From positions 1,211 through 65,210 of the forward strand of contig NZ_JAIXST010000034.1 in assembly GCF_027484545.1 (NCBI RefSeq): a DNA stretch of 64,000 bases. The letters are read 5' to 3'. Origin of the DNA: Runella sp. (GTDB taxonomy: Bacteria > Bacteroidota > Bacteroidia > Cytophagales > Spirosomataceae). Made by a program: the position numbers and the translations under genes. The notes under the pieces are model-generated. The model saw only the letters and a list, made by a program, of their open reading frames with translations. It was not told where the DNA came from and searched no databases. Below are positions 38,172-46,385 of the stretch, in pieces. How positions within the stretch are numbered: position 1 is the first letter of the stretch; every line of letters begins with the position of its first letter.

Positions 38172-39032
38172 CTATTTTTTGAAATATTCTTTCACTAAAT
38201 CGGTATAGCGACGGGCGACGGGTAGGGTGCAATCCCAATTTTGAAGCTGTAATTTGTAACCTTGAGCGTTGCCTGATATGGCAGTCACTTGACGCAAATT
38301 GATGATATAGGAACGATGGCAACGAGCAATAGGTGGATACTTGATTTGCTCCTCAATCCGACTTAGACTACTGCACAGCAATACTTTTTGAACTTTGTTT
38401 TCCTTCCAAAATACCACCTCCGAATAATTGTCTGCCGATTCGATAAACAACAGTTCTTCCGTTTTCACAATGAGAGTATCTTTTTCATTTTCGGCCAAGA
38501 GCCTGATTTCATTCTGTGGTGTAGGATTCGTTTCGATAGATGCCTCAGCACTTTTTACCAACAGGGAATCTGTAGCGTATTTTCTCAGCAAACGATTGTA
38601 ATTCACCAGCGTAATGACCGTGGCAGGAATAGTTCCAATGGAGGCTGTTATGCCCAGCCAAAACAACATACCTCTTAAATTAAAAATCCTGCCAAAAAAC
38701 CATTGGCTGTAAAATATATTCCCAAAGGTGATTAGGAGAATCACCAATACATTCCAAACAATCTCGCGGCCTACTGTCCAGTTTGCTTCTGAATACCAGT
38801 TTTTAAACCAATGAGGAACGATATAACTAACCAATGTTAGCCCCACAAACGTAATTACCCCGTAGCCCCCCTAAAACAAATGCCTTTCGGGGGTCTTGCC
38901 ATTCGGAAGTACCAAATGGTTGAAAAAAAATCAAAAAAAACTCACAAATAGCCCTGCTCCGGTCGCAGCCAATAGCCAATGACGCGTTGTGAAATGGTTG
39001 TGTGGGTAGGGTTGTGAAAAGTAGGATAACAT
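38172..39032 (-). pseudogene. Membrane-bound LytTR family regulator with two compensating homopolymer frameshifts
   Basis: LytTR domain (FIESADNY, RCHRSYIINL, LPVARRY) in ORF 38172..38846; ATG 39032 is in the same frame but hits TGA at 38931; T9 instead of T8 and G5 instead of G6 restore ...SFFLIFFQPFG...LGGYGVITFVGL. Confidence 0.8.
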
Positions 39033-39043
39033 AGTAAAAACCT

Positions 39044-39092
39044 AAAAAAAGCGTCAGTCGGTTTTGAACGGGTTGCCCAAACCGACCGACGC
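39044..39092 (-). terminator. Intrinsic terminator of the sdh operon
   Basis: GC hairpin followed by T7 on the minus strand, 20 nt after the sdhB stop. Confidence 0.85.
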
Positions 39093-39111
39093 CTAATGTA
39101 GCATGTTTGTA

Positions 39112-39876
39112 TTATACTTTATCGGAAGAAACCTTCGCTCCCAAATACTCGCGGTTGAGGCGGGCGATATGTTCCAAAGAAATTTCTTTCGGACATTCAG
39201 CCGAGCAGGCACCTGTGTTGGTACAAGCTCCAAAACCTTCTTCGTCCATTTGAGCTACCATACGTTCTGCCCGCATCGTACGTTCAGGCTGACCTTGAGG
39301 TAACAGGGAAAGTTGAGATACTTTGGCCGATACGAAAAGCATGGCTGAGGCATTTTTGCAGGCTGCTACGCAGGCACCGCAACCGATGCAGGCAGCGGCT
39401 GAAAAGGCTTCGTCAGCAGCGTCTTTCGCGATTGGAAGGCTGTTGGCATCCTGTGCGTTCCCTGTATTGACCGAAATATAGCCCCCTGCTGCCTGAATAC
39501 GGTCAAAAGCGGAACGGTCAACGACCAAATCCTTGATGATCGGAAAGGCTTTGGCGCGCCAAGGTTCTACCACGATGGTATCCCCGTCGCTGAAACTGCG
39601 CATGTGGAGTTGGCAGGTTGTTACAGCATCTTTTGGTCCGTGTGGGCGGCCGTTGATGTACATGCTGCACATACCGCAAATACCTTCACGGCAGTCGTGG
39701 TCAAAAGCGATAGGCTGTTGTCCTTCGTTGATGAGTTGTTCGTTCAAAACGTCGAACATCTCCAAAAATGACATATCGGGTGAGATACCGGTGAGTTGGT
39801 AGGTCTCAATTTTTCCCGCTGTTTTTTTATTTTTCTGACGCCATACTTTGAGGGTCAGGTTCATATTTCCTTCCAT
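39112..39876 (-). CDS. sdhB: Succinate dehydrogenase/fumarate reductase iron-sulfur subunit
   Basis: [41 protein letters not shown]. Confidence 0.97.
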
Positions 39877-39880
39877 TTGT

Positions 39881-39893
39881 GTTATCCGTTATC
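39881..39893. repeat. GTTATC heptamer pair at the 3' end of the four-helix gene
   Basis: GTTATC at 39881 and 39888; contains the gene's stop codon. Confidence 0.7.
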
Positions 39894-40265
39894 TGTACTT
39901 TTACGCTTTTTAAGATAATTGATATAACCATTAATGAGAGCCAGACATTTTTCTGCCTGTGTATCAATTGATTGTTGTTCATCAATAGTAATATAATTTT
40001 CTTCAAGTGCAATCATAAAATGGTCTTGAACTTCTGTAAGAGAACCCCTACTAATTCTACAAAACTGAATGTTTTCCTGATAATTATACCTTCCAAAACC
40101 TTCAGCAATATTATTAGTAACAGAACGCAAAGAGCGAATAAGCTGATCCGTTAATCTATATTTTTCATCTGCGGGAAATCCATTCAAAAGCGGTTTTGCC
40201 ATTTTTCGAAGCTCGACGCCTTCTTTCCAACATTTTAAATCTCGAAAAGAGCGAATTTCATCCAT
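39882..40265 (-). CDS. Four helix bundle protein (23S rRNA IVS protein / TIGR02436-type family)
   Basis: [45 protein letters not shown]. Confidence 0.92.
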
Positions 40266-40270
40266 TTTCG

Positions 40271-40297
40271 GATAACTGATAACAATTAACGGTTAAC
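40271..40297. repeat. GATAAC-type heptamer array upstream of the four-helix gene
   Basis: GATAAC 40271, GATAAC 40278, ATTAAC 40285, GTTAAC 40292; exact 7-bp period. Confidence 0.8.
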
Positions 40298-40301
40298 TTG
40301 T

Positions 40302-42290
40302 CTATTTGTAACTCCGCTGTGCTATCTTGATGTTATCGTAAATCAAATCCTCTTTGTGAAGCTCCCATTGGCTTTCGCCTTTGTGTTCCCACGCCGATAC
40401 AAACATGTAGTTTTCGTCGTTGCGCATCGCTTCGCCTTCTTCGGTTTGGTATTCTTCCCGGAAGTGACCACCGCAGGATTCGTTGCGACTGAGAGCATCC
40501 GTACACATCAGCTCACCCAATTCGATGAAATCAGCTACGCGGCCTGCTTTGTCAAGTTCAGGGTTGAACTCGTCGGCGTCGCCCAGCACTTTCACATCTG
40601 CCCAAAACTCTTTTTTAAGGGCTTGAATTTCTTTGATAGCTTCTTTTAAGCCTTCAGCGTTACGTGCCATACCACATTTGTCCCACATGATTTTGCCAAG
40701 ACGTTTGTGGAAAACTTCGGGAGAAGTTTTCCCTTTGATGGTAAGGAGTTTAGCGATACGCTCTTTCACTTTGTTCTCCGCTTCAACGAAAGCAGCCTGT
40801 TCGGTTGAAATATGCGTAGTCCGGATTTCGTTGGCTAAATAGGCCCCAATAGTATAAGGAATTACAAAATACCCGTCGGCCAATCCCTGCATCAATGCAC
40901 TGGCCCCAAGGCGGTTGGCGCCGTGGTCAGAGAAGTTTGCTTCACCCAATGCGTACAGTCCCGGAACATTTGTCATTAAATTGTAGTCTACCCAAAGACC
41001 ACCCATGGTATAGTGTACCGCAGGATAAATACGCATAGGTACTTCGTAAGGATCTTCACCAGTAATCTGCTGGTACATATCAAACAGGTTACCGTATTTT
41101 TCTTTTACAACTGCTTTCCCAAGTTCAACGATTTTCTCGGGAGTAGCATCGTGTAAATTGAGCTTATTTACTTCTCCTTTGCCATATCGGTCAATCGCTG
41201 CGGCGTAATCAAGGTAAACAGCCATCTTGGAAGTTCCTACGCCATAGCCTGCATCGCAACGTTCTTTGGCAGCGCGCGAAGCGATGTCACGCGGAACGAG
41301 GTTTCCAAAGGCAGGATAACGGCGCTCCAGATAATAATCACGTTCCTCTTCCGGAATTTGATTGGCAGGACGCGTATCGTTTTGTTTTTTAGGAACCCAA
41401 ATCCGACCGTCGTTACGGAGAGACTCCGACATCAACGTCAGTTTTGACTGATGGTCACCCGAAACAGGGATACAGGTCGGGTGAATTTGTGTAAAGCAGG
41501 GATTTCCAAAGAACGCCCCTTTTTTATGTGCTTTCCAAGCCGCAGTTACGTTAGAACCCATGGCGTTGGTAGAAAGATAAAATACGTTTCCGTACCCTCC
41601 CGAGCAAAGCAAAACAGCGTGTGCCGAATGGCGTTCAAGTTCACCGGTGATTAAGTTACGGGCAATAATGCCACGGCATTTACCATCAATAACCACTACA
41701 TCCAACATTTCGTGGCGGGTGTACATTCTTACAGTTCCCAAACCTACCTGACGTTGAAGACCTGAATAGGCTCCCAGCAAAAGTTGCTGGCCGGTTTGAC
41801 CTGCGGCATAAAAGGTACGTTGTACCTGAGTTCCCCCAAACGAACGGTTGGAGAGCAATCCGCCGTATTCACGGGCGAAGGGTACACCTTGAGCAACACA
41901 TTGGTCAATGATACCGCTTGAAACTTCAGCTAAGCGGTAGACATTGCCTTCACGAGCGCGGTAGTCGCCTCCTTTAATGGTATCATAAAACAAACGGAAT
42001 GTAGAATCGCCGTCGTTTTGGTAATTTTTAGCAGCGTTGATTCCACCCTGTGCTGCGATAGAGTGCGCACGACGGGCTGAATCCTGAAAACAAAAAGCTT
42101 TGACAGAATAGCCTAATTCGGCGAGCGTAGCTGCTGCCGAAGCACCCGCTAAACCTGTTCCGATGACGATAATGTCTAATTTTCGCTTATTGGCGGGGTT
42201 GACGAGCGGGACGGTGGAGCGATACTTGGTCCACTTGGTTTCCAACGGCCCGTCGGGGATTTTGGCGTCCAATTTGGGTGATGTTGCCAT
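40302..42290 (-). CDS. sdhA: Succinate dehydrogenase/fumarate reductase flavoprotein subunit
   Basis: [57 protein letters not shown]. Confidence 0.97.
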
Positions 42291-42313
42291 ATTTACTGTT
42301 GTCCGTTTTTTTT

Positions 42314-42424
42314 GTTATCCGTAAAACGTTATCTGTTATTTGTGAAATCTGTTATCCATGCAATTGTCATTTGCTACCGGGTTAGTTAGAACTTCTGATA
42401 ACAGATAACAATTAACTGATAACT
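42314..42424. repeat. Inverted GTTATC / GATAAC heptamer arrays in the sdhC-sdhA spacer
   Basis: GTTATC-type units at 42314, 42321, 42328, 42335, 42351; GATAAC-type units at 42397, 42404, 42411, 42418. Confidence 0.8.
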
Positions 42425-42426
42425 AC

Positions 42427-43212
42427 CTACATACTCTTAATAAAGAAGTACAAAGGCATGAGAGCAAAGCCAATCGGAATCACAATTCCAAAAATACCTA
42501 TTCCCAGAAAATTGAAAATAGGGTTGTATTTGGGGTGATTCAGACCCAGTGTTTGAAAAGCGCTTCTGAAACCGTGTACTAAGTGAAACGACACGGCAAA
42601 CATGGAAAGGACGTAGAAAAATACCAAAAGTGGATTTTTAAAGCCTTCCATCACGCTGCGGTACAGGTCTTTGGCAATGACTACGCGCGTGTTGCTTTCT
42701 TCGCGGATGTATTCTTCCAATTTGCTTTTAATTTGCCCTTCATACGGTGTAGCTACGGTTTCGCCCGTGACGAGATTCTGCTCGTATTGGGTATAAGGCA
42801 CGTATCCAAACTTATACTCAAACCAGAAATTAGACATGTGAACCACGATAAACACCAAAAGAATTGTTCCTAAAACGGCCATATTGCGTGAAAACCACGA
42901 GCTATTGGCACTGCCACCGTTGATGACGTATCGCTGATCTCCCCGTGCCTGACGATTTTGGTAAGCCAGGTACAAACCTTCGATGGCGTGAAGAAGAATG
43001 AAAGCGTACAATCCGTACGAAATAGTTTTTACGAGCGGGTTGGTCGTCATAAAAACGGCGTAAACGTTAAAAGCCAGTCCGTTATCCTGTTTGAACAACT
43101 GTAAATTTCCGCTCATGTGAACAAGTAGGAAAGAACATAAAAATAGGCCGGTGAGGGCCATGACCAACTTTTTTCCAATCGAGCTTGATAGTGTTTGCGT
43201 AACCCAAGACAT
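42427..43212 (-). CDS. sdhC: Succinate dehydrogenase cytochrome b subunit
   Basis: SSIGKKLVMALTGLFL, LVHMSGNL, FHLVHGFRSAFQTLG. Confidence 0.95.
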   Translation of the reverse strand: MSWVTQTLSSSIGKKLVMALTGLFLCSFLLVHMSGNLQLFKQDNGLAFNVYAVFMTTNPLVKTISYGLYAFILLHAIEGLYLAYQNRQARGDQRYVINGGSANSSWFSRNMAVLGTILLVFIVVHMSNFWFEYKFGYVPYTQYEQNLVTGETVATPYEGQIKSKLEEYIREESNTRVVIAKDLYRSVMEGFKNPLLVFFYVLSMFAVSFHLVHGFRSAFQTLGLNHPKYNPIFNFLGIGIFGIVIPIGFALMPLYFFIKSM

Positions 43213-43260
43213 ATCTCAATTTGTTAGATTAAAACGATGATTATTACTGTTTTCAGCGGT

Positions 43261-43268
43261 CAAAAGTA
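43261..43268 (-). promoter_or_regulatory. -7 promoter element (TACTTTTG) for sdhCAB
   Basis: TAnnTTTG on the minus strand about 50 nt upstream of the sdhC ATG. Confidence 0.6.
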
Positions 43269-43529
43269 GGCGTCAATCAATTTAGAAACAATCTAAAATG
43301 AAACTTTTTTTGCTAATCAGTTATAGTTGTATTAGGCTTAATTTTGTAACTGGCTGTGATGTTTTTTTGTTTTGGTATAAAGCGGAAAAAACAAATGCAA
43401 AAAGTGCCCTTGCTTTTAAAAAACAATAAAAATTACACCATTTACCAAAATAATTCGTTTTTTAATTAATACTTGCAGTATGCTTACAGCAAGCTGGTTT
43501 TTACCCCGTTATTTATTCCTATTCAACCG

Positions 43530-46385
43530 ATGAGGCATTTGACACTACGTATTCTCTTGTTCCTTTTGTGCATTTGTAGTGCATACTATTCTCATGCTAC
43601 CCACGTTCGCGCGGGTGAGATCACGGCAAAACGTATTTCTGACCGTGATTTGACGTATAAATTAACGCTCAATACCTACCACGATGAGATTGGGGGAAGG
43701 ATGGCAAGCGATGGTCAAAACGATGTGACGTTCTGTATCCGACCTTTTAGTGGTGGTACGGGTTCCACTTTGTTAGCCAAGCGGGTAAAAAGAACCCCGA
43801 TTAATACAGCTACTTCACTCAATATTTTTGAAGAGAATTTTACTTTCTCCTCGCCTGGTGTTTATGTGATTTCGGTTGGAATCGAAAACCGAAACGACGG
43901 GGTTGTGAACATGGCTAACTCAGTAAATACGCCGTTTTATGTGGAAACTGTATTGGTTATTAATGCTTCGCTTGGATTAAATCGTACGCCGGTTATGCTG
44001 AATCCACCTCTCGACTCAGCAAGGGTAGGGCAGAAATTTTGCCATAACCCTGCCGCATTTGATGCGGATGGTGATAGCTTGGCATATCGACTTTCCATTC
44101 CAAAGCAGGGAACACCAGGAACTTGTATTAACAGAAATGTGAACGGATATCGTGATCCAGCATTGGGAATTAATCCTGATGCCAAAAATGAACTTCAAAA
44201 TGGGCCTGCCACATTTACGATTAATGCGATTACGGGTGATTTGTGTTGGGATGCCCCTGCCGTAGCAGGTATTTACAACGTTGCTTTTATCATTGAAGAG
44301 TGGCGCGATGGAGTAAAAATTGGAGAAGTCGTGCGTGATATGCAAATTGTAGTGGCCGATGCCATAAATCGAAGGCCGCTCATTGACCCAATTGCAAACG
44401 TATGCGTGGAAGCAGGGCAAACCGTAACCCAATTAGTACGCGCTCAGGACCCTGACAATAATCGACTTTTGTTATCTGCTTATGGGGGTGTATTCAACTT
44501 AGACCCCGAAGGGAAACCAATTGCTCCTCCTCTTATTTCTCTTGATTTTGCTACGTTTACTCCTGCTGTTACGCAGCCTCTTACCTCCCCTGCTGTAGGA
44601 ACTTTTAAATGGCTCACCAATTGTGCCCACGTGCGGGAAGCTCCTTATGATGTGGTTTTTAAAGTGGAAGATATACCTAATCGAAGTATTCAATTGGCTT
44701 CATTGGAGTCTTTTTCCATTCGCGTGGTGTCTCCTAAACCTGTAGGATTAGCGGCGAAGGCTTCTACGGGTGCTATTCCCGGTTTTACGCTTACCTGGAC
44801 GGCTTATCGTTGCCAATTGCCCGGAGCGCAGGTGGTGATTTATCGCAAAGAAGGTTGTACGGGAGGGACGTTCAGCGGTTGTACCAATCCCGGTGATCCG
44901 GTGGCATTAGGGTACACCGAAGTTGGTCGCGTGCCTGTAGCCACTACCACCTCCACAGACGACAACAATGGATTAGGTTTGAAAAAAGGAGGGGTTCAGT
45001 ATAGTTACCGTATCCGCGTTATTTTTGCTTTGCCACAGGGAGGTACCAGTCCGCTTTCAGATGAGACCTGTCTGGATTTACCTGCTCAAATCCCTGTATT
45101 GACCAATGTAACGGTAGATACCACCAGTACCAATAAAGGTGTCATCACTGTGCGATGGACGCGCCCTCCGTTTAAACCCGGAGATGTTCCCGGCCCTTAC
45201 CAATATCGCCTTTCGCGGGCAACGGGCCTGAACGGTACGGATTTTACCGTGATTGCTACAATTAATACCAATTTGGGTAATCAGCCCGATACAGTTTTTG
45301 TAGACAGAAATTTGAATACGGTACAGAATGCGTATCGGTATCGATTGGAGTTTTTCTATACGTTCAACGGAACATTGGCAACGTTGGGAACGACCGAAGC
45401 TGCGAGTAGCGTTCGACTTTCCATTGTTCCTGCCTCTTTAGGATTACGTTTGAATTGGCAGGCCGTAGTGCCATGGCGTAATGAAAACCAGCGGCATCGC
45501 GTGTATCGCGAAGTACGAAATCGTCCCGGTACGTTTAATTTGATTGCTGAAGTACCGGTGCAGGCTGCCAATACTTTCACCTACGTGGATGATGGCACAG
45601 ACCGATTCCTGGCCGATGGCAACGCAACGGTGAAACTGACAACTGATTCTTCGTATTGCTATCGCGTTGAAACTGTAGGAACGTACGACAATCCTCGGAT
45701 TCAGGTAGGGCAGTTGTTTAATTTATCACAAATTGTATGTGCCGTTCCTGCCGACAGTACGAAGCCGTGTCCTCCTGTCTTGAAAATAGACGCTTTAGAT
45801 TGCGCGAATTTGACTTCCGCAGACTGTCCGGAAAAGGTAAGCAACAGCATTAATTGGACCTATCCTGCTAAAAATGCCAATAATCAGGATTGTGCACCAG
45901 TGGTTACTTACAACGTTTATTACACCCGATATCCCGACGAGGCTTTCAGTAAAATAGGACAAACGACAGCCCCTTTAGTCAACTTCTTGCATACGGGTTT
46001 GGATTCGTATGCAGGTTGCTACTACGTGACGGCTATTTCGCGTTTCGGTACCGAAAGTGCCAGAAGTAATGTTGTATGTAACGACAATTGTGCAGCGTAC
46101 AAATTGCCGAATGTATTTACACCCAATGGTGACGGGAAAAATGACCTATTCAAGCCGCTGACCTGTTCCGTTTTTGTAGAATCAGTTACGTTTGTAGTTT
46201 ACAATCGCTGGGGAAATAAAATATTTGAAACCAATAGTCCATCCCTGAATTGGGATGGAAAAACAAGTGATGGTCAGGAACTTCCTTCGGGTACTTATTT
46301 TTATCAGGCAACGGTGAAATTCAAGACCCTGCAAAAAGGCTCTGAGTCGTCAACGTTAAAGGGTTGGGTGCAATTGATTCGTTAG
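43530..46385 (+). CDS. Secreted protein with gliding-motility-associated (T9SS type B) C-terminal domain
   Basis: Signal peptide, ATHVRAGEI, C-terminal LPNVFTPNGDGKND...VYNRWGNKIF...WDG...GTYFY...KGWVQLIR. Confidence 0.9.
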   Translation: MRHLTLRILLFLLCICSAYYSHATHVRAGEITAKRISDRDLTYKLTLNTYHDEIGGRMASDGQNDVTFCIRPFSGGTGSTLLAKRVKRTPINTATSLNIFEENFTFSSPGVYVISVGIENRNDGVVNMANSVNTPFYVETVLVINASLGLNRTPVMLNPPLDSARVGQKFCHNPAAFDADGDSLAYRLSIPKQGTPGTCINRNVNGYRDPALGINPDAKNELQNGPATFTINAITGDLCWDAPAVAGIYNVAFIIEEWRDGVKIGEVVRDMQIVVADAINRRPLIDPIANVCVEAGQTVTQLVRAQDPDNNRLLLSAYGGVFNLDPEGKPIAPPLISLDFATFTPAVTQPLTSPAVGTFKWLTNCAHVREAPYDVVFKVEDIPNRSIQLASLESFSIRVVSPKPVGLAAKASTGAIPGFTLTWTAYRCQLPGAQVVIYRKEGCTGGTFSGCTNPGDPVALGYTEVGRVPVATTTSTDDNNGLGLKKGGVQYSYRIRVIFALPQGGTSPLSDETCLDLPAQIPVLTNVTVDTTSTNKGVITVRWTRPPFKPGDVPGPYQYRLSRATGLNGTDFTVIATINTNLGNQPDTVFVDRNLNTVQNAYRYRLEFFYTFNGTLATLGTTEAASSVRLSIVPASLGLRLNWQAVVPWRNENQRHRVYREVRNRPGTFNLIAEVPVQAANTFTYVDDGTDRFLADGNATVKLTTDSSYCYRVETVGTYDNPRIQVGQLFNLSQIVCAVPADSTKPCPPVLKIDALDCANLTSADCPEKVSNSINWTYPAKNANNQDCAPVVTYNVYYTRYPDEAFSKIGQTTAPLVNFLHTGLDSYAGCYYVTAISRFGTESARSNVVCNDNCAAYKLPNVFTPNGDGKNDLFKPLTCSVFVESVTFVVYNRWGNKIFETNSPSLNWDGKTSDGQELPSGTYFYQATVKFKTLQKGSESSTLKGWVQLIR

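Follow-up and report, generated by a model that had tools for sequence, protein, structure and literature searches.

The gene located between sdhA and sdhB in this Runella sp. genome and the inverted heptamer arrays on both of its sides constituted one optional, exchangeable unit, which is not a part of succinate dehydrogenase. The lineage of this cassette is old at the sdhA-sdhB junction, where on many occasions the unit decayed, disappeared or gave way to other cassettes. Our preferred reading, at about even confidence, is that the unit represents an armed cassette of the intervening sequence (IVS) type without a promoter of its own, in which a PF05635 gene lies within inverted GTTAWY arrays and is carried in the sense direction on the sdhCAB transcript. 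The window, namely the whole stretch of DNA that was analyzed, comprised 64,000 nucleotides, and positions without a contig label are those of the window.

Gene content of the sdh operon

All four genes of the locus were encoded on the minus strand, with sdhC first, followed by sdhA, a 127-aa four-helix-bundle (FHB) gene and sdhB (Table 1). A four-helix-bundle gene had been proposed at this position in the preliminary description, and the assignment was borne out by two profile searches. The protein matched PF05635 (23S_rRNA_IVP) over positions 1–106 of 106 with 99.8 bits (cut-off, 33.8; E 1.3e-28), which was the single Pfam match at E ≤ 0.001, and TIGR02436 ('four helix bundle protein') with 92.3 bits (cut-off, 24; E 2e-26). 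The closest solved structure was that of Xcc0516 (PDB 2gsc; five chains; E 2.4e-15), and by relation to this structure the FHB protein is probably pentameric. The S-x3-N-x2-E motif region was present and was aligned to RRAAVSIPSNIAEG of Xcc0516. In PMC3936711, the PF05635 motif is given as GxxRxxxSxxxNxxE, and the first G of this motif was absent from the FHB protein.

In the case of sdhB, the open reading frame started with the ATG at 39876 (MEGNMN...), and its homologues started at the position that corresponds to the ATG at 39864 (MNLTLK...). As the N-terminal extension varied with the state of the junction (MEGN, MSAGN and MSHGN), it may be untranslated junction sequence. Judging from the homologues and the junction alignments, the true start of sdhB may be the ATG at 39864.

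Table 1. Positions of the operon features in the window and of the GxxExxY genes on other contigs
Feature	Position	Strand	Basis
sdhC, cytochrome b558 subunit, first gene of the operon	42427-43212	-	TIGR02046, E 2.7e-45
Gene-less hairpin, 5' arm: GTTATCA GTTAATT GTTATCT GTTATCA	42396-42423	-	sequence
Gene-less hairpin, 3' arm: GATAAC, AATAAC, GATAAC, GATAAC, GGACAAC units	42298-42356	-	sequence
sdhA, flavoprotein subunit	40302-42290	-	PF00890, E 1e-52; PF02910, E 1e-38
sdhA stop codon, TAG	40304-40302	-	sequence
Cassette, 5' arm: GTTAACC GTTAATT GTTATCA GTTATCC	40270-40297	-	sequence
FHB gene, 127 aa	39882-40265	-	PF05635, TIGR02436
Cassette, 3' arm: GATAACG GATAAC, includes FHB stop	39881-39893	-	sequence
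FHB stop codon, TAA, within second GATAAC	39884-39882	-	sequence
sdhB, iron-sulfur subunit	39112-39876	-	PF13085, E 3e-25
GxxExxY gene	C333:147-569		
GxxExxY gene	C69:9213-9545		
GxxExxY gene	C7:18234-18581		
GxxExxY gene	C67:1811-2212		
GxxExxY gene	C135:3296-3598		
GxxExxY gene	C181:538-912		
GxxExxY gene	C327:44204-44515		

Heptamer arms and the predicted stem

On the mRNA, the junction reads TAG-acaa-GTTAACc GTTAATt GTTATCa GTTATCc-gaaa-ATG ... aca GATAACg GATAAC-a caa ATG(sdhB). The 5' arm begins 4 nt past the sdhA stop and ends 4 nt ahead of the FHB ATG, and the sdhB ATG is found 5 nt downstream of the FHB 3' end. The repeats that had been described, GTTAAC-GTTAAT-GTTATC-GTTATC ahead of the gene and GATAAC-GATAAC at its end with the stop codon inside, were exact to the base. 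The flanks had also been said to be able to pair around the gene, and this agreed with the complementarity between the inner pair of 5' units and the pair of 3' units (12 of 13 bases). Moreover, the arms closed the structure in the predicted minimum free energy (MFE) RNA fold of the 451-nt junction (z -2.55 against shuffles), and the duplex of the arms alone was calculated as -14.5 kcal/mol. For each ORF, the arm score was that of the best inverted match, without gaps, of its upstream flank to its downstream flank. Among control ORFs from the same genome, the score found here, 11.5, was attained by 0.4% of 2500 in 70/60-nt windows and by 1.5% of 2000 in 130-nt windows.

The MFE stem was also predicted to be formed by the arms of relatives (L010, L011, L019, L036 and L022). 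Across the congeners, the number of units ranged from 3 to 4 upstream and from 2 to 7 downstream. The shortest 3' arm was that of the copy in the window, with 2 units against 4–7 in the congeners, and with only these two units the stem was short, being predicted as 13 bp with one mismatch, compared with 19–33 predicted pairs in the relatives. The arms of the congeners were far more conserved than synonymous sites. Despite a dS of 0.5–0.9, the 28-nt 5' arm showed no difference in the congener L010 and only 2 differing bases of 28 in L018. For the FHB gene, pairwise comparison of four congeners and a representative of another genus gave a dN/dS of 0.09–0.11 at a dS of 0.5–1.1, a ratio that indicates strong purifying selection on the protein. 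The FHB orthologue at L018 (genome G016) had a single in-frame TGA at codon 37, with an otherwise conserved gene and intact arms, and this represents either a recent inactivation or a sequencing error.

No Rfam match was obtained at E ≤ 1 within 39000-43600. Neither the sigma-70-type promoters nor the intrinsic terminators of the operon exceeded those of shuffled sequences, in a scan outside which the Bacteroidota promoter types lay, and the lack of a standout promoter or terminator fits a promoter-less gene that is expressed off the host transcript. A gene for RNase III was encoded in the genome.

The preliminary description had further suggested insertion at the level of mRNA, and nothing was found that points there. 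Among 53 distinct arm pairs, G:U-type mismatches (40) were not in excess over A:C-type mismatches (46), and the majority of mismatches were A.A or T.T. Position 7 of the unit was paired in 66%, and the GTTA core in 94–100%, in an alignment that is biased toward matches. The arm mismatches gave no sign of support for selection on sense-RNA pairing.

Arms around the paralogues and homologues

The genome contained eight PF05635 genes, and the flanks of all FHB genes were checked as had been proposed. Inverted arms were present at six of the eight, all six being within the top 2.8% of the controls or better, so the other four-helix genes cannot be said to lack such flanks. The repeat unit differed at each of the six arm-bearing paralogues, and the arm units listed for these paralogues comprise GTGATTT / AAATCAC, GTGACGAATG, TCGATTGTCAAT, GAGTGTCGAG and GTATTGAGTA.

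The homologue set consisted of the 80 nearest loci, at 48–91% identity, with one genome per species scanned, and the closest homologues were those of Runella and other Spirosomataceae. Arms scoring at least 12 were found in 56 of the 71 scorable loci, nearly all of them with GTTAWY cores at a period of 7–8 nt, and the 5' arm was G+T-rich in 53 of the 56. GTTAWY-type arms were retained around the gene in homologues of only 48–70% identity from other families and orders. This was also the case in genome G063, which has no strict three-unit array genome-wide, yet carries a homologue with GTTAWY-type arms. Other FHB clades had distinct arm units of their own. Thus, the idea of a stem-bracketed unit held beyond this locus, as the arms accompany the gene family both within the genome and across species.

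The sdhA-sdhB junction was the location of 32 of the 80 nearest homologues, in Cytophagales and Flavobacteriaceae. These copies were carried by Spirosomataceae, Roseivirgaceae, Fulvivirgaceae, Chryseotaleaceae, Cyclobacteriaceae and many Flavobacteriaceae. Mapping of this context on the FHB tree required 4 changes, compared with a mean of 24 when the labels were shuffled. The context was strongly clustered, yet it fell into more than one clade, and one clade united the sdh copies of Spirosomataceae, Roseivirgaceae and Fulvivirgaceae with copies from Chitinophagaceae. The closest Chitinophagaceae homologues were flanked by polysaccharide genes, and further homologues occurred in many unrelated operons. 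Of 300 genomes sampled evenly from the class, 33 encoded an FHB of this type (E ≤ 1e-25), but it adjoined sdhB in just 3. Accordingly, the cassette lineage is old, rare and patchy.

At the loci outside sdh, the FHB gene was in the sense orientation with both neighbors in 35 cases and antisense in 2, with gaps of tens of bases, and this bias occurred despite the symmetry of the arms. Occupation of operon junctions, as had been suggested, was supported by this orientation bias and by the sdhA-sdhB junction, which has been repeatedly filled, emptied and refilled.

Turnover at the sdhA-sdhB junction

The junction was surveyed in 30 genomes of the family, together with a tree of the sdhA 3' end and sdhB for 29 taxa. 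The cassette of the window (type 1) was present at the junction in 5 of the 30 genomes. Other genomes contained decayed remains, in the form of a truncated gene between GTTATTG/CAATAAC arms, the 3' arm alone or the last unit alone. Three genomes carried an unrelated FHB cassette (type 2) with ATTTGAAAAT/ATTTTCAAAT arms and TTTGAAAAT units, the FHB of which was approximately 20% identical to the one described here. The junction of seven congeners (L012-L015, L020, L023 and L024) was occupied by another hairpin without a gene, the stem of which was approximately 24 bp. Its arm (TTGTCACCCTGAAAGGGTCTAAAA...) matched stretches of 17–25 nt on many contigs of the present genome and thus represents another dispersed repeat family. 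Further states were other gene-less inverted arms and an unrelated insert of 1.4 kb, and in 6 of the 30 genomes the junction was empty, with a gap of 4–32 nt.

The local tree implied a minimum of 14 state changes, and a single clade with end branches of 0.03–0.05 included the hairpin as well as cassettes of types 1 and 2. Replacement of the cassette was seen in a pair of Aequorivita, where SdhA and SdhB differed by 3.3% and the FHBs by 47%. The nucleotide identity of this pair was 82–90% in the flanks and 48–76% in the cassette interior, the drop being confined to the cassette. This pattern indicates that the unit was exchanged in one piece, for which recombination within the conserved sdh flanks is the simplest explanation. 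The Runella counterpart of the ratio of FHB to SdhAB divergence was 1.7, and the FHB and sdhAB distances were correlated (r 0.67). Purely vertical inheritance at the sdh junction was ruled out by the replacement in Aequorivita and Salegentibacter. Consequently, the proposed comparison of presence and absence at the sdhA-sdhB junctions gave a divided result, in that the gene proved to be old at the site and was not fixed there, while its purely vertical descent did not stand.

Neither a target-site duplication nor a consistent scar was found when filled and empty junctions were compared among the 30 relatives. The bases beside the arms differed between the orthologues, and no direct repeat was shared. 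No transposase or recombinase was found in the cassette or in the seven neighboring ORFs that were scanned. As the eight FHB cassettes have different arms and proteins, nothing indicates that transposition took place recently within this genome. At L025 (genome G030), a tandem duplication of the last ~35 nt of sdhA and the first arm units preceded the type-2 cassette, and it may have arisen when recombination or slippage occurred at the arm.

Gene-less twin hairpin in the operon

A second element with the same GTTATC/GATAAC heptamers as the cassette was located at the other junction of the operon, between sdhC and sdhA (Table 1). It had four 5' units, five or more 3' units, an inverted partner score of 18 and a loop of approximately 40 nt. 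An orthologue was present in the congener L039, and a degenerate form was present in L040. The element was absent from the Flavobacteriaceae that bear the sdh cassette.

One alternative is a domesticated RNA-processing module, in which the host would retain the hairpins at the sdhC-sdhA and sdhA-sdhB junctions to cut or stabilize stretches of the mRNA and thereby set the ratios of the subunits, with the FHB protein as a cofactor. The purifying selection on the protein, the persistence of the cassette lineage at one junction across two orders and the same-heptamer hairpin shared with L039 are what such a module would have in its favor. Nevertheless, we regard it as improbable. Congeners and other family members have element-free junctions of 4–32 nt, and others have an unrelated cassette or a different hairpin at the same position. 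Moreover, this FHB type is beside sdhB in few genomes of the class, its Chitinophagaceae homologues lie between polysaccharide genes and others lie in many unrelated operons, and the cassette-bearing Flavobacteriaceae do without the sdhC-sdhA element. Accordingly, the role in sdhA:sdhB stoichiometry that had been offered in the preliminary description is unlikely to be required, given the congeners with empty junctions and the 3 of 300 class genomes in which the gene adjoins sdhB.

Dispersed arrays and other cargo

The strict pattern (GTTAWYN)2GTTAWY was found in 89 windows of the genome, compared with 0 for the reversed control. These corresponded to approximately 54 dispersed loci of three or more GTTAWYN units each, such as C114:26504-26573, C212:16302-16378, C340:13217-13270 and C166:68869-68928, and most of them had no gene. 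With respect to the neighboring ORFs, 34 loci were co-directional, 7 convergent and 4 divergent. Eighteen of the array loci formed short-loop hairpins, in which the GT-rich arm came first in 18 and the opposite order was seen in 0. The congeners had from 0 to 159 windows of the pattern each. A TRF scan of the whole genome gave 513 short arrays of period 7 and 332 of period 8 in several unit families. The abundant units included AAACTGT (37 times), AATGAGTG (29), AATGACG (19), AAAGTGT (18) and AATTAGTG (18), and some of the unit families matched the arms of other FHB paralogues, no linked gene being found for others.

In the 300 class genomes, array-rich genomes made up 4 of the 33 with this FHB type and 12 of the 267 without it (OR 2.9, p 0.085), and within the genus the association had p 0.059. 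The congener G002 had approximately 60 arrays and no FHB gene of this type. A 'master gene' relation, in which array-rich genomes carry this FHB type, was thus not established, with neither p value supporting it and G002 as a counter-example.

On this background, the arrays could be a generic intergenic repeat of the genus, inside which an ordinary small gene lies by chance, with no functional link between the two. The gene-less state of most array loci, the abundance of arrays in congeners that lack this FHB type and the non-significant association are compatible with such a coincidence. It is, however, the least probable of the alternatives and very unlikely in our judgment. Distant homologues from other families and orders have retained GTTAWY-type arms, including the one in G063, which has no strict three-unit array, and other FHB clades have different arms of their own. 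In addition, no small cargo other than the FHB gene was found between GTTAWY arms in this genome, where the remaining cases were just ordinary genes between two separate arrays.

Arrays with loops of 350–650 nt enclosed genes of two kinds, namely FHB genes and GxxExxY / PDDEXK_3 nuclease-like genes (PF13366, TIGR04256). Seven of the latter were present in the genome (Table 1), with arm scores of at least 16.5 at three of them and arm units that include TGATTTGTA and CACATAGA. The GxxExxY genes are a second type of cargo in the arm-gene-arm design. The copy on C7 was located approximately 1 kb from an FHB gene.

A second cargo unrelated to the first is also what would be observed if the unit were a mobile hairpin at the DNA level. 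The arrays would then be cruciform or single-strand hairpin sites at which an enzyme acting in trans inserts and excises the unit, the FHB protein would be a site-specific accessory or just cargo, and pairing in the RNA would be incidental. The lack of an excess of G:U over A:C mismatches, the strict chirality of the dispersed hairpins, the rapid turnover of junction states and the changes of context on the FHB tree are in line with this mechanism. Against it, filled and empty junctions revealed neither a target-site duplication nor a consistent insertion scar, and no transposase or recombinase was encoded in the cassette or the seven ORFs around it. The eight FHB cassettes all differ in arms and proteins, and recombination in the sdh flanks explains the replacement between close relatives. 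The DNA-level hairpin is judged to be unlikely, although it is more credible than a domesticated module or a chance enclosure.

Proposed mechanism and significance

According to the preferred reading of a promoter-less cassette on the sdhCAB transcript, the arms would pair in the transcript and close a stem around the ORF. By analogy with the rRNA relatives, RNase III would cut this stem, by which the FHB message would be released and sdhCA would be separated from sdhB. With the arms open, the A/U-rich 5' array would act as a leader, and the ORF would be translated. The FHB protein, as a pentamer, would probably bind the heptamer repeats, and turnover between related genomes would proceed via recombination in the conserved sdh flanks. 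A role at the level of RNA is favored by the sense orientation of the FHB cassettes relative to their neighbors, the lack of a standout promoter or terminator, the pairing of the arms in the MFE folds, the RNase III gene of the genome and the cleavage of the equivalent stem in Coxiella by RNase III. What counts against such a role is the similar frequency of A:C-type and G:U-type mismatches, the predominance of A.A and T.T among the mismatches, the pairing of position 7 in only 66% and the 13-bp stem of this copy, which with its one mismatch is short for RNase III.

A broader proposal is that the PF05635 protein and the phased heptamer arrays form a self-contained system, in which the pentameric protein reads its own units, as RNA or single-stranded DNA, directs the gene with its arms into hairpin loops at transcribed junctions and maintains it at these sites. 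The clade-specific units, the conserved arrays and the strict chirality fit the idea of a protein that reads its own arrays, but the association of array-rich genomes with this FHB type was not significant, and G002 has arrays and no such gene. We put the broader proposal forward only tentatively, as a doubtful possibility. If it were true, the 23S rRNA IVS, the operon cassettes and the gene-less hairpins would be three faces of one mobile class without a transposase, and the sdhA-sdhB junction would be a recurrent homing site in Bacteroidota.

To our knowledge, the purpose of PF05635, a very large orphan family, and that of the rRNA IVS have never been settled. To this subject, the analysis adds a deep and recurrent association with the sdhA-sdhB junction, alternative alleles amid near-identical flanks and a gene-less twin in the same operon, while two negative tests, those of wobble pairs and of co-occurrence of gene and array, constrain the mechanism. 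The arm-gene-arm design is found here in a non-essential spot of a housekeeping operon, with a gene that is intact and selected. As filled, decayed, swapped and empty alleles exist naturally among close relatives, the role of the arms in RNA or DNA, the reading of the heptamers and the movement of the unit are testable in cultivable Bacteroidota. For annotation, such genes within operons should be taken as inserts and not as subunits.

Comparison with known systems

PF05635 genes occur in cas loci and other operons according to Zhang, Doak & Ye (2013, PMC3936711). Like the gene described here, these lie outside rRNA and amid unrelated genes, and the passages on them that were consulted make no mention of inverted repeat arms or insertion polymorphism. 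A structural relation exists to Avd of the diversity-generating retroelements, which is grouped by Pfam with PF05635 relatives (PF05635 is mentioned in PMC10053308). Both are small four-helix-bundle proteins, of which Avd forms pentamers, as the FHB protein probably does, and interacts with nucleic acid and with a partner enzyme. Unlike Avd, the present gene is flanked by heptamer arrays, and none of the seven ORFs scanned, which included sdhC, sdhA, sdhB, a LytTR regulator and two ORFs without Pfam hits, matched a reverse transcriptase family.

An insertion sequence or MITE was rejected, with no target-site duplication being found at the junctions compared, no transposase in the cassette or the seven ORFs scanned, and no two FHB cassettes of this genome sharing arms. 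REP and REPIN elements are dispersed short palindromic intergenic repeats that are associated with a RAYT (TnpA_REP) gene, encoding an HUH/Y1 transposase. The arrays resemble them in being dispersed palindromic intergenic repeats (~54 loci, 18 hairpins), which lie mostly between co-directional or convergent genes, and in the presence of one gene copy between inverted copies of the same repeat. However, the flanked gene encodes a four-helix-bundle protein without HUH/Y1 transposase motifs, the repeats are phased heptamer arrays, and the co-occurrence of gene and repeat across genomes is weak (OR 2.9, p 0.085).

In a full-text search of the literature, the design of heptamers plus a stem was reported only for the Coxiella rRNA IVS, and no report at operon junctions was found. 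In Coxiella burnetii, the IVS in helix 45 of the 23S rRNA carries an S23p ORF that is preceded by three GACAGAT heptamers (PMC4990558), and its 28-bp stem is cut by RNase III (PMC4990558, Warrier et al. 2016). The likeness to ORF-bearing 23S rRNA IVS that had been pointed out is real, and it extends to these tandem heptamers and the stem. In the IVS of Coxiella and Leptospira, the cargo belongs to PF05635, the same family as here. In both systems, tandem heptamers are placed right before the start codon, their number varies between strains, and terminal inverted repeats form a stem around the ORF, the pairing here being predicted. The sizes also agree at approximately 430 nt, with 428 nt for the Coxiella IVS and a gap of 428 nt here. 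The two differ in the host site, which is the sdhA-sdhB junction instead of rRNA helix 9, 25 or 45, and in the stem, which is shorter in this copy and known from predicted folding, whereas excision by RNase III has been demonstrated for the Coxiella IVS. Finally, the ORF in Coxiella is undergoing decay and is apparently not translated, whereas the FHB gene at the sdhA-sdhB junction is intact and under purifying selection.
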